Positions 20,637 through 64,000 of a stretch of DNA of 64,000 nt are shown here, piece after piece. The stretch comes from Naegleria gruberi (taxonomy: Eukaryota), in NCBI GenBank assembly GCA_000004985.1, contig GG738849.1; one strand, written 5' to 3'. A program made the position numbers and the translations under genes. The notes under the pieces are model-generated. The model had not been told where the DNA came from, did no database searches, and worked only from the letters and a program-made list of their open reading frames with translations. Position 1 is the stretch's first letter, and each line of letters opens with the position of its first letter.

Positions 20637-21632
20637 GTTGATAATCGGATTGAACCTACCTCTTCTTATTCTTCTTGTTTTGATTTCTTCTCTTTCTCTT
20701 TGTACTACTCCCTTGCATAATATTGTTGAGTAAAGAGTTTTTTTTTAGTTTTGTAAATCCAACAAAATCTGGAAGCAAGCCTAATTTTGTGTTTGATTGA
20801 ACAAGAATCCATTAAGAAAACAAATTTTGAATGAAGCCAACACCAAAATAAAACAATTCAATTTATTAATACCTAACAAGTCGATGTGCTATTAATGAAA
20901 ATTTGCTAGTAACATTCTAATCCACTTCCATCCATTGAACTCTTCACAAGCATTCCCACAAGGAGTTATAAATAACTTGGATAACTCGTCTAAATACCTT
21001 GAGTTTTTCCAATAAGTCAAATACAATAGCAGCTGTCGAAAGATAAAACAAAAAGTCCTCATTGCTACCACCGACTTTCTTGCTACACCAGCGTTTTAAA
21101 TAGTTTTTCATAATAATAACAGTAACTTCATCAGTTAACTTTTTTGAATCAATTGTAGCATATTTTATTCCGACTCGAAAATCCCTCCCTCGAACTCTTT
21201 AATACATCGCTCTCATCACTAGCACTCACAGCTTTTCATAATAATATTACGCTTGGAGGAACTTGAGTCTTGCTGCGAACATCATCAACTCAAAAAAATC
21301 ATCAACAATCGATTAACTCTTCGTGATTTTGGTTACCTTTTCCAACTGTACTAGTATTTGACCATAGAATAGATTTTCATAGGTTTTCTGCTATTATCAT
21401 CATTAGAATTTAATCTCGTAATTTGGATCATTTTCTATTAGAGAAAGCGGAAATAACATACAGCTTGGTTAAAAAATCAAAATTTAAACTATTATTTAAA
21501 CACTAACTCAAACTCTAAAGTTAGATTATATTGGAATTTAAAGATCAAGAGAAATTCTTTCTTTTAACCGACGAATTATTTCTAAATAGGATCATCTTTT
21601 TTATTCTGATGATAATTTCGGAACGACCAACA

Positions 21633-23472
21633 ATGCAAATATCTTGCTCAACATCTAACACATCAGGTTCTTCTAATTCTTCTTCATCGAAGAAAAAACC
21701 ATACAAATCAGCTCTCCGTGAGGAGATGGCAAAAACATTTAACAAATTTATAGTTCAAGAAAGAGAGCAGAAAGTAAATGGAGAATCAAAGGCTAAACCT
21801 CTATTTGTAACAACACCATTAACCGCAGTATGCCCATCAAGTAATATCTTTCAACAAGGCTTATCTCAAGATACACCACATTCTGCTAAAGCCATCGGTA
21901 GTTTTAATCAAAGTATATTTGATTCATTATCATCACCAACTCCAAAACAAACAACAGAAATTAATTCATTCCAATATGTAACATTCTCAGAAGATGATGA
22001 TGAATACGCAAAACCGATTGATGATCTAAATAGTTTTATACAAACATATTTATCAGCAATAATTGATGATGAAGAAGAATATGATGATGGAGATGGTTTT
22101 TCTCTCATTACATCAAAACCAAAACCTTTAAAAACAAATTTTGACCTTGATTCAACAACAAGTACAATAAGCACAACAACAGATTATTCCTTCGATGATG
22201 AACCACCAACTCCAAAAACAAAACCAAATATTTCCACGTTTGGAGGTTGTGGTGGATTTGGCTTTGATTTTACTAGTTTGCCACCAAAAAACACATTTTC
22301 ATTTTCTGATGATCAAGGAGAATCACTGAAAAAACCACACAGTTTCACATCAACAACAACAAAGCAATTCCCTAAAAAAGCCAGTGTTGATCTCTTTGCA
22401 AAACCAATTCAATATGACAGATTAGATGATGAATTTCAAGTAAGTATTATTATTTTGTATTATTTCTGATCTAGTTTAATAGTCACTCAAAAAATTTGAA
22501 ACAAGATTACAAAGAAAGAGTGGAATGCATACAAGTGCATATAGACAACATAATTTAACAAAGAATAGGTATAAAAACATTCTTCCAAATGAGAATACAA
22601 GAGTATTACTCCAATCAAAGGAAAGATGTGAACCTGGATCAGATTATATCAATGCAAATCATATTATTACCCAAACAACTCAAAATTTCAAAAGAATTAA
22701 ATTATCCCCTCCACCTACCTATATTGCCACTCAAGCCCCTTTACCTTGTACATTTGCTGATTTTTGGAGAATGATCGTTGAGCATAATAGTACAATTATT
22801 GTAATGCTCAGTAGTGAAGTGCTATCTTCAGATTCAGAGAGTGATGAAAGTAACAATGCTGATCAATTTGATCAATGTTTTAATAAGAACAAGGTGAATA
22901 AGTATTGGCCTTCACTCTACGAGAAAAAACTTTATGGAGATATTGAAGTTGAAACAATTTCGGAAGAACAAACAACTTATGATTTCGTTTATAGACAATT
23001 TTTAGTTTTTGGAGATGGTCTGCCTGATTCTGGTAAGAAGATTCATTTCTATCAATATACAGGTTGGCCTGATATGGGAGTTCCAGATAGTACAGTTTCA
23101 TTCTTTAAATTAATAGAGTGCATTGACAATCTGATGACACAACCAAATTACCCAAATGGTCCAATTACTATCCATTGGTAAGTAGTAATATTTTTAATTT
23201 TCAATAATTAATAATTTAATATTAGCTCGGCAGGTGTTGGTAGAACTGGAACATTTTGTACAATACATATTCTCCTTTCTCAGTACAAGGAGTACCTAAG
23301 TTTACCAAAAGAAGAGCGAGATAACGATAATCCGTTTGATTTTAACATTTATAAAATTGTAAAACAACTGAAAAATTTGAGAGTAGGAATGGTGCAAAGA
23401 AAGGAACAATATAGATATTGCTACTATGGTGTTCGGGATGGAATTAAAGAAATACACTCACAATTTTTTTAA
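21633..23472 (+). CDS. protein tyrosine phosphatase (classical PTP domain) with S/T/N-rich N-terminal region
   Basis: Three exons: 21633..22439, 22483..23177, 23226..23472. Introns are 43 nt and 48 nt, GTAAGT..AG. PTP motifs seen: NRYKNILPNENTRV, FWRMI, KYWP, YTGWPDMGVP. The catalytic HCSAGVGRTG motif is reconstituted across the second intron (…ITIH|CSAGVGRTG). Confidence 0.7.
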
Positions 23473-23508
23473 TAATAATTATTTTAACATTAACTTTTGT
23501 GAATGAAC

Positions 23509-25100
23509 TTAAAGTTCCGGTTGAGAAATAAATGGAATGATCCATGAAAGTAGATTATTTCTCAGACATTCATTCTGCTCTTCATTGGACATGGAGCTTA
23601 GAGAACTCAGAAATGGATGCTGTAATATTTGTTCATAGCTTGGTCTCTTATTTCTATCAATTTGAAGACAACATGCCACAAAATCAATCATTTCATTAGA
23701 AGCAAAGGCCTCTCTCAATATTTTCAAAGCATTATCCACATAGAGATTGAAATCAGTATAGCAACTGACAACATCTTTTGTTGTATCTTGAGGATGCTTT
23801 CCAGTGAATAATTCCACTAATACAAGTCCAGTACTCCACAAATCACAGTTATAACCATACTTTTCCTCTCTCAATCTCTGAAATTATTGTTTTGAAAGGA
23901 ATGCAATCAAATTAAACATACCTCAGGTGATAAATAAATTCTTGTTCCACAAATTGTATCGTAGGTTGTGTCATAAATACCAGAATTTCCAATATTAAGG
24001 TTTTTACCATTCGAAAGACCAAAATCTGATATTTTCACTTCACCATATTTACTCATCAATACTATATTATATTTCCACATTAAAATTCAATATTTTGTTT
24101 CACACAATTAATAAAATTCAATATTCCAATATTTTTAAATACTACATACTATTAGAAGGTTTAACTATTCATCAATATTTCAATAATCTCTTTCTCAAAT
24201 TAAAAACAACTTACTATCTCTATGAATAATATGTTTCGATCTCAAATATTGCAATCCCTCAATGACCTTCTTAATAATAACTGCACATTCCTTCTCTGAC
24301 ATGCAGGATCCAGAAGCATATCTCTGTAGAAATACTTGTGGAAGTTTTCTAATGGTTTTAACAATTTTCTTGATTAATTCCTTATTTCTCTCATTTTCCT
24401 GCTCTGATAAACGATCCACATTCTTAACTTCACTCCCCATTGGGAATAAACTTTTTGTAGATTCGGAACGAACTAAGAGTTTTAAAGTTTTTCTGGTGAG
24501 ATCGATAATGTTCATGATGGTTGATAAACTTCCAATATCCATGTATTCCATAACCAAGTGTACAGTTGTTTCCTTGTAGAAACATTCGTATAATTTTACA
24601 AGATGAGGTGATTCACTATTCGAAATGAAGGTAATTTTACAAAATTATATTCGAAATGAAGGTAAATAATACTCACCTTGTGTAGATGGTATGAAATTCC
24701 CTCCAAATATAATTATCCTTTTCATCATCCCACTTTAAATGAATCTTTTTCAGAGCATAATACTTTCCGGAAATAGTTTTAACTTTCGAATAATTATTAC
24801 ACATAAATTTGATGAGGACCTACCCAAGAAAACAGTTCCAAATTGTCCTTTACCTATCTGTATCATTTGTCCTGTCATTATTTCCTGTACAATTTCACTA
24901 TTTCCCTTGTCAATATATTGATTATTGACAATTTGTTTAATTCCATGTTCTCCGATGGCATATATAACTTTATTCGAACTTAAATCCATAGCAGTTATAA
25001 CAGAATCAGTTTTTAATGTAACATAACAAGTATGTGTTCTAGTAGTCTCATCATCTTCCATGTCATCTGCCAAAAAAGCTGACAAGTTTGCAGGAATCAT
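23509..25100 (-). CDS. protein kinase, MAP kinase kinase (STE7/MEK)-like
   Basis: Six exons (minus strand): 24824..25100, 24677..24782, 24215..24615, 24150..24164 (15-nt micro-exon), 23922..24061, 23509..23877. Motifs seen: glycine loop IGKGQFGTVF, YYALKK, ESPHLVKLYECF, HRD|IKPSN (split by the micro-exon), DFG, GTRIYLSPERL, DLWSTG. All introns are 41-88 nt with GT..AG. About 435 aa. Confidence 0.75.
24613..24661. repeat. tandem duplication (about 22-bp unit, 'attcgaaatgaaggtaa…') inside kinase intron 2
   Basis: Two adjacent copies of ttcgaaatgaaggtaa(n)t within the 61-nt intron at 24616..24676. Confidence 0.5.
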
Positions 25101-25243
25101 TTTTTTTCAATATTTTTAAATATCACATCCTATTTTCAACCTTTCCAAATAATTTTTATTAATCAATTTCATCATCCACTTGATTTCCATCATCTACCTT
25201 CCTTTTATATCAAAATTTACAAAATCAAAAACATAAAAAAAAA

Positions 25244-26024
25244 ATGTCATCATCACTAAGAGCTTTGAGAAAAGTTGATGAGGGAGAGTTTGATTTGAGC
25301 AAGGCACATCACGTTCGTTTAATTTCCCTCATCAGAACACAAATTGCCCATCCGACTGGTGATGGAGAAATTATTAAACAAGCAACGAATGGAAATTTAA
25401 CAAAATTGAAGGAATGTCTGGAGAATGGAAGTTGTATTGATGAAGTAGGTGATTCGGGGGTGAGTTTTTAATAGTTTCAGATGATGATAATGATCAATGG
25501 AAATTTGTATTTTGCGATGGAAAATTCATGAAATTGTGTGGTAAAATTTGAAATGATTTCGAATTGAAATTGTGTTGATGGGGGTGAGTAGAGAATTAAT
25601 GCATTGATGATGGCTATTCATAAGGGACATAATGAAATGGTCAAGTATTTATTGGATCAAGGAGCTGATATGCACTATATCAATCATTCGTAAGTTGTTT
25701 TATCAAATGATTAGTGATTGAATTTATGCAATAATATATATTGGAAATAGTCCTTATTGTGACACTGCATTGCATTGGGCTGCCTATTACAAAAATCCAC
25801 AAGCTTGTAAAATGTTATTGGAAAGAGGAGCTTTGGGTGATATTCCAAATTATTCTGGAGTGACACCTTTGGATGACGCACGTAATCATTGCAAGCAATG
25901 TGAAGCTCTCATTCAGGAATATTTGGAATGCTCTCTTGTTGCTAGGAAGAGAATTGAGAAATTTAGAGAAATGCTGTTGAAAAATCCATCACTGGATGTT
26001 GAAATTATTGTAACTAACTTGTAA
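25244..26024 (+). CDS. small ankyrin-repeat protein
   Basis: Three exons: 25244..25459, 25592..25689, 25751..26024. Donors are GTGAGT and GTAAGT. Ankyrin consensus (G.TALHWAA, GH.EMVKYLLDQGAD) is continuous across the splice junctions. A-rich ATG context. Confidence 0.65.
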
Positions 26025-26211
26025 ATAATCACATTGTATATTGGACACCGAACGAATATCAAACTTTTACAATTTTAGAGATTTGTAAAACACAAGAAAT
26101 TGAATTCACATAGGTTTTTATTCTTTTGTTGAAATCTAAAAAGATTTCGTTGGAATAATTTATTTGAAATTACATAAATGCAACAAAAATTTCAGGGGCT
26201 CGCCACGTTTA

Positions 26212-26282
26212 CCGTCTCGGGAGGAATCGAACCTCCGTCAATGGATTCAAAGTCCACTATGCTACCATTACACCACGAGACG
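26212..26282 (-). tRNA. tRNA-Gln (anticodon UUG)
   Basis: 71-nt cloverleaf: acceptor CGTCTCG/CGAGACG, D-arm GTGT..GCAT, anticodon loop CTTTGAA, T-arm GGAGG-TTCGATT-CCTCC, discriminator G. Identical to the copies at 44443 and 45008. Confidence 0.85.
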
Positions 26283-26403
26283 AGCACATTATTTATATCA
26301 ACACCCCCAAGTGCTTAAATACTCTTCCATTAAGGGGATATCGTTTTCAAGCTGTTTTTCAACACTCTCCGAATTTTTGATCATTTAAATCAATTAGAAA
26401 AAT

Positions 26404-27504
26404 ATGCAAACACTCCCTATTGAAATTCTCACTGAACACATCTTTACTCTGATAATTGATTTCAATGATCAAAAATTCGGAGAGCAAATTTCCAACCTGT
26501 GTCTCGTGTGTTCGGAATGGGCAAATTGTTTCTACAATATTTCATCATCATCATCAGCAGAGAATGGTGAATTATTTTGGAGAGTCAAGCTTGACTCATT
26601 AAATAATAATAATTTAAATAATAATAATTTAAATAATCATGATGATGATGATAATTTAAAATTATTGAAAAATAAGAGAGATTTCAATTTTAGAGAATTA
26701 TTCATCCTACAAACAATTCCAATCTTGGATTTTCCATCAAATGAACGGGTATCATTTACTGGACCTGTGGGAACTGATCAGTTATTCTATTCTGGAAATT
26801 TCCAAAGTTGTAGAATTTTGAATGAGAATTCTCAAGGGCTATTGGCTCTCCATAAAAGGATAATGACGAATTGTTTACAAATTCTGCATGATGGAAAGGG
26901 GAAACACTTATCAGATTCATCTTATTCGTTAACATTTCTAAGAAATTGCAAAATTAATGCATTTTCATTGGTTGGTCAGATTGTAGATTGGAGGAGTGAA
27001 TTTGAATTTGAATATGGAAGAATTTATAATGAGAGAGTGGCGAAACCCTACTCTGAATTCATTGTTAATTGGGATGTAAGAGCAGTTCCAGGAGATTTCA
27101 TAGTCTCTACGACGGGTGATTTGATTGAACGATTGAAGAATGCAGTGCAATGTGTGGAAACTAGGAATGAAAAGGTGGATGAGTACTATTATTTTGTCAT
27201 GAGGAAAGCTCTTTATGAAACCTTACTGAATAGAAATGTGCAATTGGTAAAGATAAATGATATGACTCGATTGGATGATGAAGAGGATGAATATGAAATG
27301 AATGCTCCACAAGAGCAATTTCAAATACCATTCCCAAAAAACTTTGATGAATTGGAATCATTTCTTCAGGATAATTCAGTTTTAATATTAAGCAATCCTT
27401 TGTGCATAACATATCCATGCTCTTGTGATGTTTTTACATTCATGATATTTTCCAAAGTTCAGAAAGGACATGCAATTTTCCTGAATATTGAAAGTACTTC
27501 ATAA
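26404..27504 (+). CDS. F-box domain protein
   Basis: ATG at 26404. N-terminal F-box (LPIEILTEHIFTLI…). Poly-Asn/Asp tract (NNNNLNNNNLNNHDDDDN) coded by (AAT)n/(GAT)n at about 26590-26655. 366 codons, TAA stop. Confidence 0.7.
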   Translation: MQTLPIEILTEHIFTLIIDFNDQKFGEQISNLCLVCSEWANCFYNISSSSSAENGELFWRVKLDSLNNNNLNNNNLNNHDDDDNLKLLKNKRDFNFRELFILQTIPILDFPSNERVSFTGPVGTDQLFYSGNFQSCRILNENSQGLLALHKRIMTNCLQILHDGKGKHLSDSSYSLTFLRNCKINAFSLVGQIVDWRSEFEFEYGRIYNERVAKPYSEFIVNWDVRAVPGDFIVSTTGDLIERLKNAVQCVETRNEKVDEYYYFVMRKALYETLLNRNVQLVKINDMTRLDDEEDEYEMNAPQEQFQIPFPKNFDELESFLQDNSVLILSNPLCITYPCSCDVFTFMIFSKVQKGHAIFLNIESTS

Positions 27505-27600
27505 TACTATGAGTACTCAACTTGAGAGAATTATCACAATCAAATTATTTCATTATCTATTTCTATTTATTTACAAGTTTGTTATCAGGAACCATAAATT

Positions 27601-28410
27601 TTACCAAAATAAGAAACTAGCCAACAATGCCATAAGAACCATCACATTGACATTTCCACTAAGAGAATTTCCCTCAGAAGCTGTTGTACCATTCATTGAA
27701 ACTCCCATTTCAACATATGCATAAAATCCAGCACTGATATCACTTGATGAAATTTGCTTCAAAGTCAACATTCCTAACACTCCATTATCTTTAAAAACAG
27801 AATCAGTGGAGAGTGAAGTTCTCTGGTTGGTATTTGAAGTGTAAGGTGAAACTTTTGCAACAGCATCTGTCATTGAATCATTGAATGAAAATTGAGAGGT
27901 CAATAGAAGAGTACTATCCTGCCAAATTCTAACATGAATGTGATTGTCTCTTCCAGTGTACCATCCTGGATATATAGTTTTGAAATATGCAACTGCACTC
28001 GAATTGGTAAATTGTTTTCCTCTAAAATAAGTATTGGTGTCTGTTTTTGGGTTTGCATAATTCTTGGAAGCTTCTTCATAGTGTGAATAAATTCCCAAAT
28101 AATCACAATGCCAAATTTCAACAGTGACATTCTGTTTGGTTGGAAGACAAGTGGCCAAATCTAAAATTGTAATGTAGAGATGAATTGGGAAACCTGATTT
28201 TGATTCTGTTATATCGGCACGATAGGGCATTCCTGAAACGAAGTATGGACCTTCAGTTTCTGATGGAGAGGCAATGCATGTGAGGGAACCTCTCTTGACA
28301 ATATCTTTTGGAGTAATGTATCGTTTTGGTCCATGTCCATAACATGTGCTGGCAATGATGGACGAAACCAGAAGAAACATAAGAAACCTTGTGATTGTTA
28401 AAGAATGCAT
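27601..28410 (-). CDS. secreted intradiol ring-cleavage dioxygenase-like protein
   Basis: ATG at 28410 with N-terminal signal peptide and a C-terminal hydrophobic tail (GPI-anchor-like). Family motifs seen: CIASPSETEGPYF, IWHCDYLGIYS, YPGWYTGRDNHIHVRIW. Confidence 0.75.
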   Translation of the reverse strand: MHSLTITRFLMFLLVSSIIASTCYGHGPKRYITPKDIVKRGSLTCIASPSETEGPYFVSGMPYRADITESKSGFPIHLYITILDLATCLPTKQNVTVEIWHCDYLGIYSHYEEASKNYANPKTDTNTYFRGKQFTNSSAVAYFKTIYPGWYTGRDNHIHVRIWQDSTLLLTSQFSFNDSMTDAVAKVSPYTSNTNQRTSLSTDSVFKDNGVLGMLTLKQISSSDISAGFYAYVEMGVSMNGTTASEGNSLSGNVNVMVLMALLASFLFW

Positions 28411-29110
28411 GATGTTGTTTTTTTAACATTGTGGATATCTTTGCAAGAGAATGTTGGCTTTATATAATTGTTGATGGATAAGCAAGGATTCTTACGACAA
28501 AAGTTTCGAATTTCAAACTAGTTTCGAGTTCTTTTCCTCAAGTTCTTTCCAACTATCCAATAAATAAACTTCTAATAAGGACTGTCAAACCCTCTTGCTT
28601 CCAAAATCAAAATACCAACAAGGATAGTTTCCATCAAGAATCCTCCTAACATTGACTCGACCGTTATATTTTACATATTTAACACAGTTATTTGGTAATC
28701 ATAACAATACATTGGATTGCCATTCTTTCTATCTTATCGATTGGGTAGACGAAGAGTTACAGCAGTGATTTGTGAATGGTGCAGTAACCAACTTTCAAGT
28801 AGGTGGTTGACTTGTTAACATGAAAATCAAACCAGCTCTATTCACAATTCCTTCCTATCATTTAGGAATCCAATCTTTGTGCTACTTTTTGCAACACCTT
28901 ACTGGCAGGACAATCGATAATCTCAAAATGAGAAGTAGCAATATTACACGTTCAATTGCCATGTATTGATTGGTTCAGATTCTTACAACCTCTCATAGAT
29001 GCTACATCAGTACTATCGCCACAAACAATATGAAGAAGTGGAAAGCAAAGGTGTAATTCTGTTTAGTTTGTTTTTAATAATAAATATTTTACAGATCATC
29101 AGTAGATGAT

Positions 29111-29858
29111 TTAATCGACCATTTCATCGATCTTCTTTGATGAAGTATCCAATAAATTCAAATAATTTTCAATATCATCATCCTCATATAAAGTGAATTT
29201 ATAGATCCTTTCCAACAACAGCAACTGAACAATTCTTTGTTGTCAATTCTACATTATCTCCAGTTGTTCCTTTAAGGGCCTTCAAGGCATGAACGATAAG
29301 ATCCTTCCAATCATTTGTGAATGTATCGTAATGCTTTTCAAAGTAAGTCTTGGCACTTTGAGATCTAGCACCAATAGCAATAGCCTTATAACTATACAAA
29401 TTTCCACTTGGACAAGTTTGATACAAGTGAGCACCAGTTTCATCATAACCACCAACCAATAATCCAACACCGAATGGACGGCCTGATGAGCTTTGTGTAC
29501 TCTTTTGGGATTTATCGGCAATCTTTGATGCTAATCTTTGTACAGGAACTGGAGTTTCAAAAACATATTGATGGCTCATACATTCGTTTCTCATATATTT
29601 ACTCAATACACGTCCATCAGCAGCCAATCCGGCAATAGCAATACCAATGTGATCATCAATCTTGAAAAGCTTCTTTTGATAGCTAGAAAGTTCGGCGTGT
29701 GGTGCTCTCTTCAAAGTTGCCAATACTACAAAATCCTTTGATTTAAGTCCAACAGCAGCACTTCCTTGTTGAACGGCTTCCATAGCATATTCAACTTGGT
29801 GCAATCTTCCTTGTGGTGACCAAGTGGTAATATCAGTGTCGTATTGATTTCTAAACAT
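29111..29858 (-). CDS. proteasome subunit alpha type-1 (PSMA1/alpha-6), with a +1 frame break before the C-terminal tail
   Basis: ORF 29199..29858 (ATG at 29858) is collinear with PSMA1 from [29 protein letters not shown] through …VAVVGKDL, then TAA. The next 30 codons in the +1 frame ([18 protein letters not shown]…, ending TAA at 29111) continue the PSMA1 tail homology (human …GKDLEFTIYDDDD…). Skipping one T of CTA-TAA-A restores a single ORF. Confidence 0.8.
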
Positions 29859-31144: not shown

Positions 31145-32148
31145 TTTTTTTGTAAAGAGTAAATAAGTATTGATCAATCTTTAAAGTATTGCATCATGTT
31201 ACAAAAAATCTTGGCAGTAAATGAATTCAGGACAATCTCCAAATATAAAAAACGTGTTGTTTTGAACGACCATTTTTGATCCTTATCTTCCTAATAAGCA
31301 TAAAAACCATCAATACATTGTTAAACAACATTTCTGGTAGTTACCTTAATGTTAATATTATTTAACATGATCATCAACTAGTATACTTTACAATCTCTGT
31401 AAATTCTTCAAGTAAAAGACAATATTCGGTGTCCACACAAAGCTTTCAATAGTTCAACCTTTGTGGAACTGTGTGTAAGTTTCTATTGTAAACTTCGCAC
31501 ATCGAATTCTATTGGCTTGTGGTCTTTTTGAACATCTATGTAGATAATAGCCAACGACAAAATCATTTCCAACACAAAGAACAGAGCGAGGAGAATACTT
31601 CCGATATCTTGCTATCTGTGTGTACATCCAATCGTTTAAGCGTCATTGAATATCTGCTTTACTACATCTTTACTATTGACTTTTTCAAAGTATGTTTGTC
31701 TCTCGTTTCAAAACTAGACTCAAACATGTGAAATCTCCTCTTTTTACTCTCAATGCACCCTTTAAAAAACGCCCGAATATATTAAATAATAAATATTCAC
31801 CAAACACTGGATAAGGTGTGCGAACGGTAGCAAGCCGACTCGACTTCGCTGGGCAATTTGCTGCGTTGACCTCACAATATTCCAAATAAATCCTAATTCA
31901 AGAAGGCTAAGCATTTTTATCAAAAAAAAATCACCAATTTCCAACACGCGCGCTTGTTTTGAGTGAATTGGTTCTTTGTGAAAACAAGTTTTGTGTTCAT
32001 CTCAAATAACAACAACAATCAATATATCAATATATCAACAATTATTGTGTCGTAATTTTTTAAAGGAACAACACACAATTTTTCAAAGACTAATATTCAA
32101 GTTTACTAGTTGAATTCAACTCCCGATAATAATTCATCACAATATAAT

Positions 32149-34020
32149 ATGGCTCCAATGAAGACTGCTGCTGTTACTACTCCAGCAACTACCACAACCA
32201 CAACTACTCCAGTCACTACCACAGCATTATTGCAAAATGTTCAATCCACACTTTCTAAATCCCTTGACACTTCTCTCAATGTCATTGGTAAACAACTTCA
32301 AACTCTGGGTGTTAACCTTCCACAAGATCAACAAGAAAAGCTTAGCATGGCTGTTGGTTTAACAGGAGTTGGTGCCACTCTTTATATTTTGAATAAGATC
32401 TGCAGTAAGATTATGAGAATGCTTACATTACCAAAACCAAGTTTTGCCAAGAAGGATTACGATGTAGTCATTGTTGGTGGTGGTATTGGTGGTTGTGCAT
32501 TGGGAAGTGCATTGTCTAAGGCTGGAAAGAATGTGTTGGTTCTTGAAAGAGATATGAGTGAGCCAGATCGTATCATTGGTGAATTGCTTCAACCTGGTGG
32601 TGTTCAACATTTGAAAGATTTGGGACTCGGACATTGTCTTGAAGGAATTGATGCTGCCAGAGTTTTTGGTTATCAAGTTTTCTATGGTGATGAACAAGTC
32701 AATTTGCCATACCCAGCTGATTCCAACAGTAAGGTTGGTGAAAAGGTCGAAGGTAGATCATTCCACTATGGTAGATTCATTATGAATTTGAGAAGAGCTT
32801 GTGAACAAGACGGGTAAGTATCAGTTAATTTTTTCACAAGTGTGATTGAAATATTTTATAGAGCTAAGATCTTGGAAAGAACTGTTGTTTCATTGATTGA
32901 AAAGACACCAGGTTTGATTGAAGGTGTTCAATATAAGGAAGGTGATGCCACTGTTGAAGCTACTGGTAATATCGTCGTTGTCTGTAACGGTGCTGGTAGC
33001 TCTTACACTAGACAAGTTCGTTCTGATAAGGTCGGAAGTGGTAACAAGCCATTGGTTGTTTCTCAATTCATTGGTTTGGAACTTGCTGCTTCTGCTGACA
33101 AGTTGCCAAGACCAAATCACGGAAACGTATTCCTCTTGCCAGATGCTCCTTGCTTGCTTTACCCAAATAGTACAACTACAGTTAGATGTTTGATCGATTT
33201 CCCTGATGGAGATGCCAACAAATTACCAAAGAGAGGCGAAGAAATGGCCAAATACCTGCTTGAATATATCATGCCACACTTGCCAGAAAATTTACATGAA
33301 TCTTTCAAAGCTGAAGTTGATGCTGGCAGAATTAAGGTTGTTCAAAATCGTGAAATGCCAGGTGAAACACCAGAATCACTCACCAAGAAGGGAGTTGTTC
33401 TGATTGGTGATGCCATGAATTGCAGACATCCAATCACTGGTGGTGGTATGACTGTCACATTCTCCGATTGTAAGGAATTAGTTAAGGCCATTGTTCAAAT
33501 TAAGGATTTGAACTGTGTTTCTGAAGTTGATGAAGCAATTCAATCATTCTATGTTAACAGATCTAAGGTTGCAAGCACTATTAACATTCTTGCCAACGCA
33601 TTGTACAGTATCTTTGCTCCACCATCTGGAAGCAAATCTTGGGAAGCATATAAGAGTGAAGGTAAGAAGCCAGACGCTCTCTCAAACAATGACAGCATGT
33701 CAATTATGCGTAGAGCTGTTTTCGGATATTTCAAGAAGGGTGGTATTTGTCAAACTGGTCCATTGTCATTATTGAGTGGTATTTGGCATTCACCATATGG
33801 TCTCATTGCTCACTTCTTCTCTGTGGCCGTTATTGGTTCAGTTGATCTCATTAAGGAAGGAGGTATTTTGGGTATCTTTGGAAGTATATATAAGAGTTTG
33901 AAGATGATAACTGGTGCTACTACTCTCATTGCTCCACTTATTGCTGAAGAACGTTTATTATCTTGTATTTTCCCTGGTTTCATTTGGAGAAGAAAGCCAC
34001 TTCCACACCACCAAAAGTAA
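32149..34020 (+). CDS. squalene monooxygenase (squalene epoxidase), copy A
   Basis: Exons 32149..32813 and 32862..34020. Intron is 48 nt, GTAAGT..TATAG, phase 2, and the join gives …ACEQDG|AKILERTVV…. FAD-binding DYDVVIVGGGIGGCA, LQPGG, and NCRHPITGGGMTV match squalene monooxygenase. T-rich N-terminal extension with one TM helix. Confidence 0.8.
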
Positions 34021-34379: not shown

Positions 34380-36099
34380 ATGGTAAATACCTTTCAGAAC
34401 TTTCACCTAATTGCAAACATGTTCCACCTCGAAAGTTTATTTCAACTGTTTCACACTTCACATAAGATGTGGACAATAACTGGTTGTGGTCTTGTTGGCC
34501 TAATCATTCACAGGATATTAAACAAGTTTTACAAACTCCTGACATTACCAAAACCAAGTTTTGCCAAGAAGGATTACGATGTCGTCATTGTTGGTGGTGG
34601 TATTGGTGGTTGTGCATTGGGAAGTGCATTGTCTAAGGCTGGAAAGAATGTGTTGGTTCTTGAAAGAGATATGAGTGAGCCAGATCGTATCATTGGTGAA
34701 TTGCTTCAACCTGGTGGTGTTCAACATTTGAAAGATTTGGGACTTGGACATTGTCTTGAAGGAATTGATGCTGCCAGAGTATTTGGTTATCAAGTTTTCT
34801 ATGGTGATGATGAACAGGTCAATTTGCCTTATCCAATCGTTGAGGGAGGAAGAGCAGAAGGTAGATCATTCCACTATGGAAGATTCATTATGAATTTGAG
34901 AAGAGCTTGTGAACAGGATGGGTAAGTATCAAATAGTTTTCATATCAACTTAATGAAACCGAATGTTAAAGGGCTACATTATTGGAAAGAACTGTTGTTT
35001 CATTGATTGAAAAGACACCAGGTCTGATTGAAGGTGTTCAGTATAAGAAAAACAACAACGATTCAACTGTTGATGTCACTTGCAAACTTGTGATTATTTG
35101 CAATGGAGCTGGTAGTTCATTCACTAGACAAGTTCGTTCTGATAGATTTGGAAATAAGCCATTGGTTGTTTCTCAATTCATTGGTTTGGAACTTGCTGAC
35201 AGTGCTGAAAAATTACCAAAACCAAATCACGGAAACGTTTTTGTTTTACCAACTGGACCTGTTTGCTTTACCCAAACAGTTCTTTAACAGTGAGATGTTT
35301 AGTCGACTTTCCACATCCTGATTCGAATAAGTTACCAAAGAGAGGTGAAGAAATGACCAAATACTTGCTTGAATATATCATGCCACACTTGCCAGAAAAT
35401 TTACATGAATCTTTCAAGGCCGAAGTTGATGCTAGCAGAATTAAGGTTGTTCAAAATCGTGAAATGCCAGGTGAAACACCAGAATCACTCACCAAGAAGG
35501 GAGTTGTTCTGATTGGTGATGCCATGAATTGCAGACATCCAATCACTGGTGGTGGTATGACTGTCACTTTCTCCGATTGTAAGGAATTAGTTAAGGCCAT
35601 TATTCAAATTAAGGATTTGAACTGTGTTTCTGAAGTTGATGAAGCCATTCAATCATTCTATTCAAATAGGAAAAAAGTTGCATCCACAATTAATATTCTT
35701 GCAAATGCTTTGTATTCGATTCTTGCTCCTTCATTAACAGTAGTAAGAAATGATCAAGAGAAAACAATACACAAAGATGACACAGTTTCCTTATTGCGTA
35801 GAGCTGTTTTTAGGTACTTACAAAGGGGAAGCTTTTGTCAAACTGGTCCATTGTCATTATTGAGTGGTTTGTGGCATTCACCATATGGCCTTTTATTTCA
35901 TTTCTTTTCTGTTGCCTTACTGGGTTCAGTTGATCTCATTAAGGAAGGAGGTATTTTGGGTATATTTGGAAGTTTATATAAGAGTTTGAAGATGATAACT
36001 GGTGCTACTACTCTCATTGCTCCACTAATTGCTGAGGAACGTTTATTATCTTGTGTGTTTCCTCGATTCTTTTGGAAGAGAACTGCACCGATCAAGTAG
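34380..36099 (+). CDS. squalene monooxygenase paralog, copy B (frame-disrupted; possible young pseudogene)
   Basis: ATG at 34380. Exon 1 is 34380..34921 and a 50-nt GTAAGT intron has its acceptor at about 34971. It is about 90% identical to copy A from 'LTLPKPSFAKKDYDVV' onward but has an unrelated 55-aa N-terminus. Relative to copy A it carries a 1-nt deletion near 35263-35270 (A: ccttgcttgcttt; B: cctgtttgcttt). That creates a stop (…PTGPVCFTQTVL*), after which the copy-A-homologous frame continues intact to a TAG at 36099. Confidence 0.6.
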
Positions 36100-55135: not shown

Positions 55136-57610
55136 ATGGGAGAGCTTATTGGGACCAGTATTTCCATTGAGGAATTTTTATTGATGGAAGGAGCGCATGC
55201 AACTACAGCTCTATCGGGATTACAATCCATTAATTTTGAAGCCATGTTGGAGGAGATTGATAAACGAATTGTGGAGGTGAATAAACAGTTGGATCAAACC
55301 AGTATTGTATTACCTGTAGATAATGGTAGGTGTTGTAGAAGATTTATGTGTGAGCTGTAACTATTCCTAATTTGATAAAAGATACAAAACCTAGACAGTA
55401 TAGTGATAAGGAGTTTTTGGAGGATTTAATTGTAATAATGAGATATTATCAGGAAACTGATTTATTTTCGAGTATGAATGTATTGCAAAAGATTGGAATT
55501 TTAAAAGAGGATTTTAAATACCGATGTTCGAGAGTTTTTAGAGATGAAAGATATAGGTTGGCTCCCCCTTTGGAATTGAATAATAGAAAGACTTTTGATA
55601 CAGAGTTTGAATTGGAGGAGGAAATTAATACATTTATTTATGCTATGGTTGCCTATCAAGTGAATGGAATATCTGATACACACCCAAAAAAAGATATGGA
55701 TAGGCGAAAACTATTGCTCTTGAATCTTTCATTGTCAATTGATTCAAGGGAGTTAAAGGAATTTGTAAGTGGGTTGTTAACTAATTGATCACCTTAATTA
55801 TTCCAATAGTACTATTCCCTTCGAGAAAAGGAAATTGCAGATTATGTGCCTTCTCTATCGACCGATGTAAAGCAACTGAATCTGGACATTTTCTTCAAGT
55901 TATCGAGAGATTTACTTTCCGTGATCAGAGAAGATTTTTCAATCACTTCAGAGGTGATAGATAATGAGTTTCTTATTGAAATGTTTGTATCACTGTATCT
56001 TAACAAGTATACAATAATGCTGGGTGATATTTGTTTGGATGTTGCTGAGAGTTTATATAATCATAAGGTGTCCTCAATAATGCCAAATATTATTGAAATA
56101 TTCGAGTTGGCGCTTGACTTTCAAGAAAATGTTTCAAATCTAATCAATAAGAAAAAAGGGAAGTCAAAGAAACAAGAGCAACAATTGTCTATATCTGTTC
56201 CTAAACAAGTGGATTTCTCCTTTGGTTCAAAAACCTTCATATTCGGATATGATAATTTTGTTTCATCCACTCTTAATGGAATTACAGTTGAAATAGTGTT
56301 CATATTGGGAGAGGTTTGTAATGGATTATTTGGAAAGGAAATTTCATTTGAGAGCTTTACCAAGAGTAACGAGCATCCAATCCTCAAGGATGTGAAATCC
56401 TTGATGGATAAGTTGACTCACATTATTACAATGTTCTCAAAACATGGACTTACGGATTTCAAAAATAATATTCTGAAGAAAATTTGTTACGGATTTTCAG
56501 TGTTGTTGGGGAAATTTGATGAATTTCTTTTCAAGAGTGATTTCGATCCGAAATTATTGAAGAACTTATGTAAGTAATCTAATACTGTAACTTCGTCTTA
56601 ACCTGTTCAAAGATGTTGCCTACTCTACATTATTGTACTGTTGTGACTCTGTGAGCTATTTTGGTGCATTGTACAATGAAACAATTGAGCATTGTGTGGA
56701 GGAAAAAACCTTTGATTTTACCCAAATGAATAACTTTTACAGGGAAAAATCAAAAACATTTAGGGATTTCATAATCGAGTATCATAGTAGTATAATTTCA
56801 TTATATTGTGTACCAGATGTTAGGTATCAAATGGATTGGGATACTCATAGAAAATTCTTGAATGATGATAGGTGTAGTTATGGTATCCAGATGTGGAATT
56901 ACTATATGAAATCGACTTGTAAAGAGCTCTTCAAAAGTATTCCTGACTACTTTGCCAGCGACTTGTTCAGTGAATTACTCTTCAATTCAGCAAAGGCATG
57001 GAATGAAACGTATTCCAACATTTTCCCAACAACCAAGAAGAAATCATTGCAATTTAGAAATGACATCAGCTTCTTAATCATGTATATAAGGTCATTTAGA
57101 GGAGTTTTAGATTCCAAATTTGAAAAGTCAATTAACAGGGAATGCTTAAAATTACTAGTTTACATGGCAATACTCTGTGCGCCATTTCCAGCAATTAAAA
57201 CATTTCTGCAAAGTATTGAAACTAAGGAAGGGAATCTGCTTTCTGCTAGATTCGTTGTAATCTACCAACAGTCCAAACCAGTCAAGTATATTAAGGGGAT
57301 ACCAATTCTGGTATGGAATTCTCCTAAATTCAATCCTATGTTTGAATTTGATCACTTAATAGAATATAACCGAATAGGAAATGAATCTAATGTAGGAACC
57401 AACGAAATTGATTTCTCCGAGGTTAAGAATGTTTCCTTTGACTTTCCAATACTGTTACACGGATACTACGTGTTTGGCATGTCAATACTTTCACTATGTA
57501 ATAGAATATTACTGAGATGTGAGTATAACGATAATGATTACCCTCCTCCAAGTGATGAAGAGAAAGTGATGCGAGAGGATATTAAAGGCATAATAGCCAC
57601 ACTAAAGTAA
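55136..57610 (+). CDS. hypothetical protein (about 776 aa), function unknown
   Basis: Four exons: 55136..55325, 55382..55764, 55810..56569, 56613..57610. Donors GTAGGT, GTAAGT, GTAAGT; introns 43-56 nt. Each junction restores the downstream track ORF frame. A-rich ATG context. TAA stop. Confidence 0.55.
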
Positions 57611-58522: not shown

Positions 58523-60939
58523 ATGATCACTTGCCGAACTGCAAATAAATTTTTCTTAAACAAAAAAACAAAATTTCTCCCTTCGCAGTCGTCCTTGTTC
58601 GGAATCAATAGACAACAGCAACAGAGAAGATTTGTACATCAATCCTGTAATAATAATAGTAACAATATAAAATATAACACGAGAATGCCATCTTGGAATT
58701 ATCCTCAAGCTTTTAGAGATGAATCAGCCATTGATACTTATCAGAGTGAAACAAGAGGGGAGGTAAAAGTTGCTGATCCATATCGTTGGTTGGAAGAACC
58801 ATACAGTGAAAAGACAAAGGAATGGGTTTCTCAACAAGTTGATCTTTTTTCAAAATATATGATGGAAGAAGGAATTGAAGAAAAGGTTGGAGCTACAAGA
58901 GAAGAATTGGTTGATCAACTTACAAAAATGGTTAATTTTGAAAAAGTTGGATGTCCATTCAAGAGAGGTAAAGGTGACTTGACTGGATATTATTATTTCA
59001 AAAATGATGGTTTACAAAATCAAGACGTCATGTGGGTCAGAAGATCACTTGAATCAGATGAAGCTGAAGTATTCGTTGATCCTAATACATTCTCTGCTGA
59101 TGGTACTTCTTCAATTAGAAGTAGTGCTTTCACTAAGAATGGCGACTATTATGCTTATGGTTTAAGTGAAAAGGGAAGCGACTGGCAAACTATTAAGGTT
59201 ATGGATGTCAAGACTAAGGAACACTTACCTGATTCTATTAAGTTCTGTAAATTTACTTCAATTTCTTGGACTCATGATTCTAAGGGTTTCTTCTACACCA
59301 GATATCCAGAACCAAAGTCATCTGTTGAAAGTTTGGGATCTGAAGTTGACCCCAATGAAAATTCCAAACTCTACTATCACAAATTGGGAACTAGTCAACT
59401 TGAAGATATTTTAATTTATGGTGACAGGAGCCAACCAAAGTGGATGTTTGGAGGTTTTGTTTCTGATGATGGATTGTACTTGATTATTACTGTCAGTGAA
59501 AGCACTGCACCTGTAAATAGACTCTTCTTTACAAAGGTTTATAAGAATGATGAAATTGGAGGAGAATTGGCATTCGAAAAAGTTGATCCAAATGACAGTG
59601 AATCACCAATCAAAGTTGTTAAATATATTGATAACTTTGATGCTGAATATGATTATATTACCAATGAGGGAACCATGTTCTACTTTAAGACCAACTTGAA
59701 TGCTCCAAACTCAAAGGTCATTTACGTTGATGTCAACAAGCCATACACTGAAATGAAGGAATTAATTCCTGAAACTGAGGATCCAATGAGCATTGCCAGT
59801 ATTGGTAATAATGATTGCATCATTGCAAATTATGTACATAACGTTCAAGATGTTTTAAAGTTCTACAACCTTTCAACTGGAGAATATATCAATGATATTC
59901 AATTGCCTGCAGTTGGTTCAGTAGCAAGTATTTCAGCCAAAAAGGAAGACTCAATCCTCTTTTACAAGTTTGTTTCTTTCAATCACCCAGGTACAGTCTA
60001 CAAGTATGATTTCAACACAAAGGAAACATCAGTTTTTTATCAGACCAAGACTAGTGATCTAGTTCCTTCACCTGACTCTATTGAAGTCAAGCAAGAATGG
60101 TATACCTCAAAGGATGGTACACAAGTTCCAATGTTTATTGTCCATCAAAAGGAGGGATTTGAAAAGAATGGTAATAACCCAACATGGCTCTACGGATATG
60201 GTGGTTTTTCAATTTCACTTCAACCATCCTTCAGTGTAATGAGACTCTTTTGGATCAAATACTTTGGTGGTATTGTAGCCATTCCAAACTTGAGAGGAGG
60301 AAATGAAATTGGTGGTGAAAAGTGGCACGAACAAGGTATTCTCGACAGAAAGCAAAACGTTTTTGACGACATGATTGCTGCAGCTGAATATCTTATTAAG
60401 GAAGGGTATACTTCTCCAGCCAGAATTGCCTTAAACGGTGGATCTAACGGTGGACTTTTAGTCTCTGCAGTAGTTAACCAAAGACCTGACCTAATCCGTG
60501 TCGGTGTTCCAATGGTTGGTGTTCTTGACATGCTTAAGGTAAGTTTTATAATTGATTATTTTTCTAATGAAATTTCTAGTTCCACACTTGGACTATTGGC
60601 CATGCTTGGTGTAGTGATTACGGCTGTTCCAGTGATCCAAAAGGTTTCGATTATTTGAGTGCTTATAGTCCACTTCACAATATTAAGCCTCAAAAGTATC
60701 CAGCCGTGTTGGTAACAACAGCCAATCATGACGATAGAGTCGTTCCTCACCACTCTTTCAAGTATACTGCCCAACTTCAACATGTAGCAGGACCTGTAAA
60801 CGAATCTCCATTGTTGTGCAGAATTGAAGTTAATGCTGGCCATGGAGCTGGCAAGTCTTTGGCAATGTCAATTAGGGAAATGGTTGATGTTTACATGTTC
60901 GCTGCAGCTAATATGGGAGTCAAGTACACCAAGAAATAA
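58523..60939 (+). CDS. prolyl oligopeptidase (S9A family)
   Basis: Exons 58523..60538 and 60580..60939; the intron is 41 nt, GTAAGT..TCTAG. N-terminal beta-propeller and a catalytic domain with GGSNGGLL (Ser), DDRV (Asp) and GHGAGK (His) motifs collinear with PREP. 54-aa basic N-terminal extension before the 'MPSWNYPQAFRDE' core. TAA stop. Confidence 0.8.
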
Positions 60940-63034: not shown

Positions 63035-64000
63035 ATGAAACAAGCTCTTCTTGAAAAATTGCGCACCTCTAATCTCATTGACAGCTCTCTTCTTCAACAA
63101 TTGATCCACTCGGAAATTGAAGTCATCACAGAGAGCAGGAATTTCGTTTATCATTTCAAACCTAAACTTGAAGAAGTCCTCATTCATTTTCAAGTTAATC
63201 GATAGACAAATTAGTAATCCGCTTGGAAATGTTGAGTGTATGCTCTACACTATTTTGGCAAATCAAGAATTACCACTTCCAAAATGTTTTCAAGTTGGTT
63301 CACTTGAGATTAATTCCAAAAAATTTGATTTTTTGATTTTGGAGTTTGTGAAGGGGAAAACGTTATTGGAAGCTTTAAATTCCAATATGCTTGAGTTAAA
63401 AGAGGAAGATGATGATATTCTCTCAAATTTAATGAAGGATTGTGTTGAAATTTGTGGAAAATTGCGAAATATTCCAGTGAAGGGTTTTGGACCTCTTGTT
63501 GAAGAGAACAGTTCAACCAATTTGAGAGGAAAATTCGAAACTTATTCAGAGTTTATTTCTCACACCATCAAGGAACAGAAATTTCTATTGAGCAAAATGG
63601 ACCCATCTAGAGGGCAGATATTAGAAGAAGGAATGCAACAATTGGAAGATTTCTTTTCAGAACCTCAAAATTCATTCCAAATTCTTTCCAATCAAAAAAG
63701 TTCTCTGACTATTGTTGATGTAAATCCAGCAAATTTCATCATTTCCTATCCGTCTCAAAGTATTGTCATGATTGATTTGGAAGTTCTTGTTGGGGCCAAT
63801 GAATTATTTGTGATGGGAAGTTGGATGGCCAATCTGTATGGAACTAGAGCATACTCACACTTCCGAAAGCATTGGGGATTTACTATGGTGAAACAAGAAG
63901 AAACTCTCTGTATAGCATTTGGATTGTTAAGAATTCTAAATATCATGATTCATTTGGGGTTAAATACAGAATTGGATTTGGAAGATATCAAACCATTCGG
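63035..64000 (+). CDS. fructosamine-3-kinase-like (FN3K/APH-fold kinase), frame-disrupted, 3'-partial at window end
   Basis: ATG at 63035 (cacagaaaaaaaATG). N-terminus MKQALLEKLRTSNL… aligns with the FN3K N-terminus MEQLLRAELRTATL…. Frame 0 stops at TAG 63203-63205 (…HFQVNR*). The +1 frame continues RQISNPLGNVECMLYTIL…LILEFVKG…VDVNPANFII…IDLE…, matching FN3K (…VKVNRRTQARQMFEGEVASLEAL…), to the window edge. Confidence 0.65.

Follow-up and report, generated by a model that had tools for sequence, protein, structure and literature searches.

Results and discussion

The window, the whole stretch of Naegleria gruberi DNA that was analysed (64 kb in total), has a G+C content of ~33% and is densely packed with genes of long open reading frames (ORFs) and few short introns; for the estimates given below it was counted as about 45 genes with roughly 40 kb of coding sequence. 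Its minus strand carries a gene for a 20S proteasome subunit of the alpha6/PSMA1 type, which falls into the following parts:

29858-29202, minus strand: zero-frame ORF of the alpha6/PSMA1-type subunit, 219 sense codons, with ATG at 29858 and CTA at 29204-29202
29204-29201, minus strand: the stretch CTAT holding one extra nucleotide, where orthologues have TTC or ACC
29201-29199, minus strand: zero-frame TAA stop, a product of the frame break (from the ORF list and the sequence)
29200-29114, minus strand: tail of 29 sense codons in the +1 frame, predicted last beta-strand and C-terminal helix of the subunit
29113-29111, minus strand: TAA that closes the +1 frame and aligns with the stop codons of N. 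fowleri and N. lovaniensis

Both domains that mark an alpha6/PSMA1 subunit are found in the 219-aa ORF by Pfam, namely the Proteasome_A_N signature (PF10584, 54 bits) and the proteasome domain (PF00227, 190 bits), the latter being complete (profile positions 1-189 of 189) and ending at residue 215. The homologue search returned '20S proteosome alpha subunit [Naegleria gruberi]' (XP_002681735/EFC48991, 219 aa; strain NEG-M, from an 850-kb contig) with 100% identity, the N. fowleri orthologue is 90% identical and the PSMA1 chains in the PDB match the gene at E about 1e-88.

The synteny around the gene is partial (21531-29858): PSMA1, a protein kinase and a tyrosine phosphatase adjoin in N. gruberi, N. 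fowleri and N. lovaniensis, and N. gruberi has two additional genes between these neighbours compared to the other two species:

26404-27504: ORF of 366 aa with no Pfam match
27601-28410: gene for a secreted intradiol-dioxygenase-like protein

A TFIIS-type zinc-ribbon gene that comes after PSMA1 in N. fowleri and N. lovaniensis was not detected in N. gruberi by tblastx at 1e-8, and the upstream neighbour of PSMA1 is an alpha/beta hydrolase gene in N. gruberi versus a PNPOx-like gene in the other two species.

The frame break

On the minus strand the ORF ends with GGA AAG GAT CTA TAA ATT C and the protein with ...VAVVGKDL, while the +1 frame runs on from 29200 with AAA TTC ACT TTA TAT GAG GAT GAT GAT ... 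GTC GAT TAA; the reference sequence as assembled at 29195-29210 is GATCTATAAATTC. That the PSMA1 frame continues in the +1 frame behind the 219-aa ORF had been proposed in a first-pass annotation of this DNA and is confirmed by tblastx, as the body (window frame -3) and the tail (window frame -1) fall on one continuous frame of N. fowleri. The 30 further codons that had been counted there are in fact 29 sense codons and a stop.

A DNA alignment of four species, with N. fowleri, N. lovaniensis and a metagenomic Naegleria next to N. gruberi, revealed exactly one extra nucleotide in the latter (GAT CTAT AAA TTC versus GAT TT-C AAA TTT). Removing any single base of CTAT gives one ORF with L, L, H or Y as the residue at this position, and the relatives themselves differ here (F, T and P). 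Placing the shift 'at the stop' is, going by the alignment, one of four equivalent readings. The break had been said to lie exactly at the TAA; a stop is indeed located at or near it, but the extra base may be any of the four in CTAT. CTA is used for only one of the 18 leucine codons of the gene, namely at the break site itself, which mildly favours an original codon other than CTA. The longest homopolymer near the break is AAA, in agreement with the earlier remark that a long one is missing.

The canonical introns of the window are very short (41-50 nt) and have GTAAGT or GTATGT donors and AG acceptors:

22440-22482, plus strand: canonical intron
32814-32861, plus strand: canonical intron
34922-34971, plus strand: canonical intron
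55765-55809, plus strand: canonical intron
56570-56612, plus strand: canonical intron
60539-60579, plus strand: canonical intron
37738-37689, minus strand: canonical intron

An intron at the PSMA1 break was considered and rejected, as had been done before: no GTA[AT]G..AG intron restores the ORF there and the weaker GT..AG candidates would delete conserved residues. This also bears on the idea that one base is removed at the RNA level by a non-canonical micro-intron, by transcriptional slippage or by RNA editing. Nothing more than the need to restore the frame speaks for such a correction and we regard it as hardly credible, as neither a frame-restoring intron of the type used in the window nor a homopolymer run for slippage is present. 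RNA editing is known from heterolobosean mitochondria (PMC5421314), but the PSMA1 gene is nuclear.

Conservation of the tail

Single uninterrupted PSMA1 ORFs are found in N. fowleri (249 aa), N. lovaniensis (249 aa), Willaertia magna (252 aa) and a metagenomic Naegleria (254 aa; contigs from JGI, ENA and Logan), and the annotated N. gruberi product with its 219 aa is the shortest among the 120 best homologues. Orthologues ending at GKDL had been named in the first-pass annotation as the sign of a true truncation; instead, all four of these relatives run through this position.

An open frame of 29 codons is expected by chance alone in about 11% of cases, and it is the similarity of the tail and not its openness that carries the weight for homology. 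From the first 24 tail residues 21 are identical to N. fowleri, the stop of the orthologue coincides with that of the tail, and N. gruberi, N. fowleri and N. lovaniensis share the end GTCGATTAA in all three aligned sequences. Mouse and human PSMA1 show VGKDLEFTIYDDDD at the position of the tail, and the earlier statement that it matches the conserved C-terminus of PSMA1 including the human protein is well founded. Judged by these alignments the homology of the tail to the C-terminus of the orthologues is far beyond chance.

The tail has also been under selection to the same extent as the body. Compared to N. fowleri we obtained a dN of 0.062 and a dS of 1.07 for the tail and a dN of 0.062 and a dS of 1.20 for the body, and 8 of the 11 nucleotide differences in the tail are at third codon positions. 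With a dN/dS like that of the body the tail must have been read in the +1 frame for essentially the whole divergence of the two species, which rules out an old truncation; the break is thus either very recent, artefactual or bypassed.

Regarding the structure, the counterpart of the tail in solved mammalian PSMA1 chains comprises residues of about 220-238, which are ordered. The AlphaFold2 model of the N. fowleri orthologue shows a strand at 219-224 and a helix at 226-247 with a pLDDT of 93-95 for residues 211-230. According to this model the tail is structurally integral, being the second strand of the terminal hairpin together with the C-terminal helix. In N. gruberi the terminal beta-strand and C-terminal helix that follow the ...VGKD turn in an alpha6/PSMA1 subunit are encoded in the +1 frame only.

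Exact look-ups of the 219-aa product and of the three repaired 248-aa variants (with L, Y or H) in Logan, ENA and JGI returned the reference annotation only, and an exact-protein look-up of the 37-aa tail ORF was empty; a further two N. gruberi proteins encoded in the window were also missing from the gene-position index that was searched. Scans of metagenome contig DNA with one degenerate and one exact pattern gave no matches and have little weight, as JGI contig 3300002220 was missed as well. The degenerate pattern fits this contig by eye, which means that either the contig is outside the collection or degenerate patterns are searched incompletely. A homology search with the C-terminal 83 aa for short transcript fragments resulted in a single unrelated weak match.

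A second and a possible third frame break in the window

Two further genes of the window deserve attention with respect to their reading frames:

32110-32813 and 32862-34020, plus strand: squalene epoxidase paralogue 1, intact
34380-34921 and 34972-36099, plus strand: squalene epoxidase paralogue 2, one base missing
35260/35261, plus strand: position of the missing base, GGACCT-GTTTGC compared to paralogue 1 (one-base gap in blastn)
63035-64000, plus strand: APH-like ('FN3K-like') gene, aminoglycoside phosphotransferase / FN3K clan, ATG at 63035 and TAG at 63203-63205, then a +1 frame that is still open at the window end

As assembled, squalene epoxidase paralogue 2 ends with ...LPTGPVCFTQTVL* at a TAA (35285-35287) located eight codons past the break. 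Insertion of one T yields a protein of 556 aa that is collinear with paralogue 1 and 80% identical to it over 532 aa, and comparing the two paralogues gave a dN/dS of 0.20 before the break and 0.25 behind it. Like PSMA1 this is a single-base break in a conserved gene with an intact and selected downstream frame. It differs from PSMA1 in that a base is missing and not extra, that the break precedes the stop by eight codons and that an intact tandem paralogue exists. A correction by -1 would be required here at a site that is not a stop, and no slippery heptamer was seen at this site. The tandem paralogues show about 84% DNA identity with long stretches that are 100% identical, and these stretches suggest gene conversion between the two copies.

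The situation is different for the APH-like gene, which had been described as showing the same arrangement as PSMA1. Its upstream frame ends with CGA-TAG-A and the 56 codons for the N-terminus are read in another frame than the remaining ones, but both frames stay open together for at least 30 codons, each junction that was tried results in an ORF and no orthologue places the break, so that the supposed parallel could not be confirmed. The match to the APH family is weak (17 bits compared to a gathering score of 23.2), and moving the junction changes it from 16.1 to 18.0 bits with the best value for a shift 9-14 codons upstream of the stop. No homologue outside N. gruberi was found at E < 1e-5 and no sequence in the PDB matched; the sole database match is a 229-aa 'predicted protein' of N. 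gruberi whose start is an internal Met and which lacks the N-lobe. A tblastn search with an approximate human FN3K sequence as query gave no match. On its two frames the APH-like gene may be a third frame break.

Programmed frameshifting

The headline of the first-pass annotation was a programmed +1 ribosomal frameshift in PSMA1. At CUA-UAA-A, with the P site occupied by tRNA-Leu and the stop placed in the A site, the ribosome would skip the U and go on with AAA (Lys), giving the full-length subunit. This would be a 'savior' recoding like that of Euplotes or antizyme, but specific to one species. The position of the zero-frame stop at or at most one codon from the break and the A as next base agree with such a mechanism, a tail kept under selection is also predicted by a long-standing recoding, and the APH-like gene also allows a reading with a +1 continuation after CGA-TAG-A. 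Nevertheless we regard programmed frameshifting as quite improbable, since the site is absent in all four relatives (N. fowleri, N. lovaniensis, Willaertia and the metagenomic Naegleria) and several further observations stand against it.

CTA-TAA corresponds neither to the Euplotes motifs AAA-TAR or WWW-TAR nor to the antizyme motif UCC-UGA-U nor to that of RF2. According to the codon-anticodon rules re-pairing of the P-site tRNA-Leu (anticodon UAG) from CUA to UAU fails, as A would face A at the middle position, and a slippage of the Ty1 or RF2 type is not expected at this site. Moreover, the 136 nt from 29215 to 29080 fold with z = -0.75, 40 of 200 shuffled sequences folding as well, and no Rfam match was obtained near the site at E <= 1.

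The use of stop codons in the window also gives no sign of a weakened stop recognition. TAA closes 27 of the 34 long ORFs (at least 200 codons) and is followed by A in 9 of these 27 cases, which makes it a normal terminator, and TGA is in use as a stop as well, closing 4 of the 34. Among all stops that close coding-like frames in the window only behind that of PSMA1 does the +1 frame go on with a strong coding signal (0.52 bits per codon), and in no other gene of the window can a coding +1 continuation be placed at the stop. For the long ORFs of the window we determined a stop density of 0.107 per codon in the frame that follows a one-base insertion, and a random insertion is expected to be followed by a stop immediately in 11% and within two codons in 20% of cases. 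The squalene epoxidase break would have to be corrected by -1 where there is neither a stop nor a slippery sequence and does not fit such a mechanism either, and in the literature searched no report linking Naegleria to programmed frameshifting was found. With the wrong motif, no re-pairing, no RNA structure, no conservation and no recurrence in the window, the proposed headline finds no positive support.

A comparison with well-known systems leads to the same picture. In Euplotes +1 frameshifting a zero-frame TAA is likewise followed by A, the conserved protein goes on in the +1 frame and the shift needs no stimulatory RNA element. However, the codon preceding the stop is in most cases composed of A and T only in Euplotes, AAA-TAR accounting for 3,489 of 3,700 frameshift sites and mostly other A/T-only codons for the remainder (PMC4759687), whereas it is CTA in N. 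gruberi. About 11% of the Euplotes genes are concerned compared to one case among about 45 genes in the window, TGA is read as Cys with an altered eRF1 in Euplotes while it is a stop in the window, and TAA-A is a routine terminator in the latter. With antizyme (OAZ) and bacterial RF2 the PSMA1 site would share a shift at an A-site stop that yields a functional full-length protein. In contrast, orthologues share the antizyme and RF2 sites UCC-UGA-U and CUU-UGA-C, which make use of stimulators (a 3' pseudoknot or a Shine-Dalgarno-like element), whereas the PSMA1 site is absent in all relatives examined and its surroundings show neither unusual folding nor an Rfam match.

Origin of the extra base

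The explanation that we favour, with moderate confidence, is a consensus insertion error in a Sanger-only draft, in which case the gene as expressed would lack the extra base. One base within CTAT (29204-29201, minus strand) would have been added by a wrong consensus or base call, and the cellular gene would be a single ORF of 248 codons, ...VAVVGKD-[L/Y/H]-KFTLYEDDD...EMVD. It would encode a normal alpha6/PSMA1 subunit in which both the last beta-strand and the C-terminal helix are present, and recoding would play no part. In Table 1 of PMC9928731 N. gruberi NEG-M is entered as a Sanger-only assembly.

The single-base difference followed by an intact and selected frame that such an indel should leave behind is found at PSMA1, and an indel of the opposite sign is present in the same assembly in squalene epoxidase paralogue 2. 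Two to three indels per roughly 40 kb of coding sequence correspond to about 5e-5 per base, which is of the order expected for a draft Sanger consensus of moderate coverage. As the two homology-verified breaks are of opposite sign, lie in unrelated contexts and are both followed by selected frames, random indels and not recoding are the most economical explanation. Going by the comparison with the orthologues, the extra base is most likely absent from the real NEG-M DNA and the PSMA1 break is most likely not real as a biological feature. A similar case is Ndc80 of N. clarki, a conserved gene that is also split into two frames in the genome with the rest of the ORF intact; there, indels of RNA-seq reads versus the genome restored a contiguous ORF (bioRxiv 10.64898/2026.08.18.745565).

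Against an error speaks that the break shows neither a homopolymer nor a G+C-rich compression, the usual sites of Sanger indels, and that a heterozygous allele predicts the identical sequence pattern. The extra base could namely be a real and very young frameshift in NEG-M, probably in one allele of a heterozygous locus that was chosen by the assembler. One allele would then encode a 219-aa subunit that lacks the C-terminal helix and the strand before it, and the functional protein would come from the second allele. We consider this main rival possible but less likely than an error. One base and an undegraded tail are what it predicts as well as an artefact does, and a mutation is no less compatible with the sequence context than a Sanger error. 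Naegleria is described as mainly a heterozygous diploid with mitotic reproduction, heterozygosity has been reported for N. gruberi (PMC9928731) and NEG-M has been propagated axenically over a long time; moreover, the squalene epoxidase break affects a duplicated gene, which can easily cope with a loss-of-function allele. On the other hand, the PSMA1 subunit is single-copy and stoichiometric and the part that is lost is an ordered strand and helix. For real mutations, two to three recent frameshifts that all lack secondary decay would also be many in about 45 genes, and by a rough estimate the density of frameshift alleles in coding sequence is expected to be below the error rate of a draft. 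Of the three options given in the first-pass annotation, a recent truncation and a one-base insertion both agree with the single extra base, the selected tail and the second break, and only the programmed frameshift is unsupported.

Should the extra base be an artefact or belong to a young allele, the 219-aa model XP_002681735 is truncated and should comprise 248 aa, squalene epoxidase paralogue 2 is similarly mis-modelled and comparative work on the N. gruberi proteome inherits both model errors. The opposite case, in which DNA and mRNA of N. gruberi both carry CTA-TAA-A and full-length alpha6 is made by efficient +1 frameshifting as a lineage-specific 'savior' recoding, appears very unlikely to us. 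If DNA and mRNA did contain the base and the complete subunit were produced, it would be the first efficient +1 frameshift at a stop codon in a heterolobosean, and this in a core proteasome gene. Recoding would then take place in an essential housekeeping gene of a eukaryote with the standard code, and Naegleria ribosomes would tolerate or correct some internal stops.

Apparent frame breaks

Several of the short introns of the window shift the frame and mimic frameshifts in a plain ORF map. The apparent breaks at 2618 and 15703 were rejected because separate genes meet there, encoding a coiled-coil protein and an EF-G-like GTPase in the first case and HECT and RGS proteins in the second, and those in the prolyl oligopeptidase gene (60539-60579) and the tyrosine phosphatase gene (22440-22482), among others, turned out to be canonical introns.
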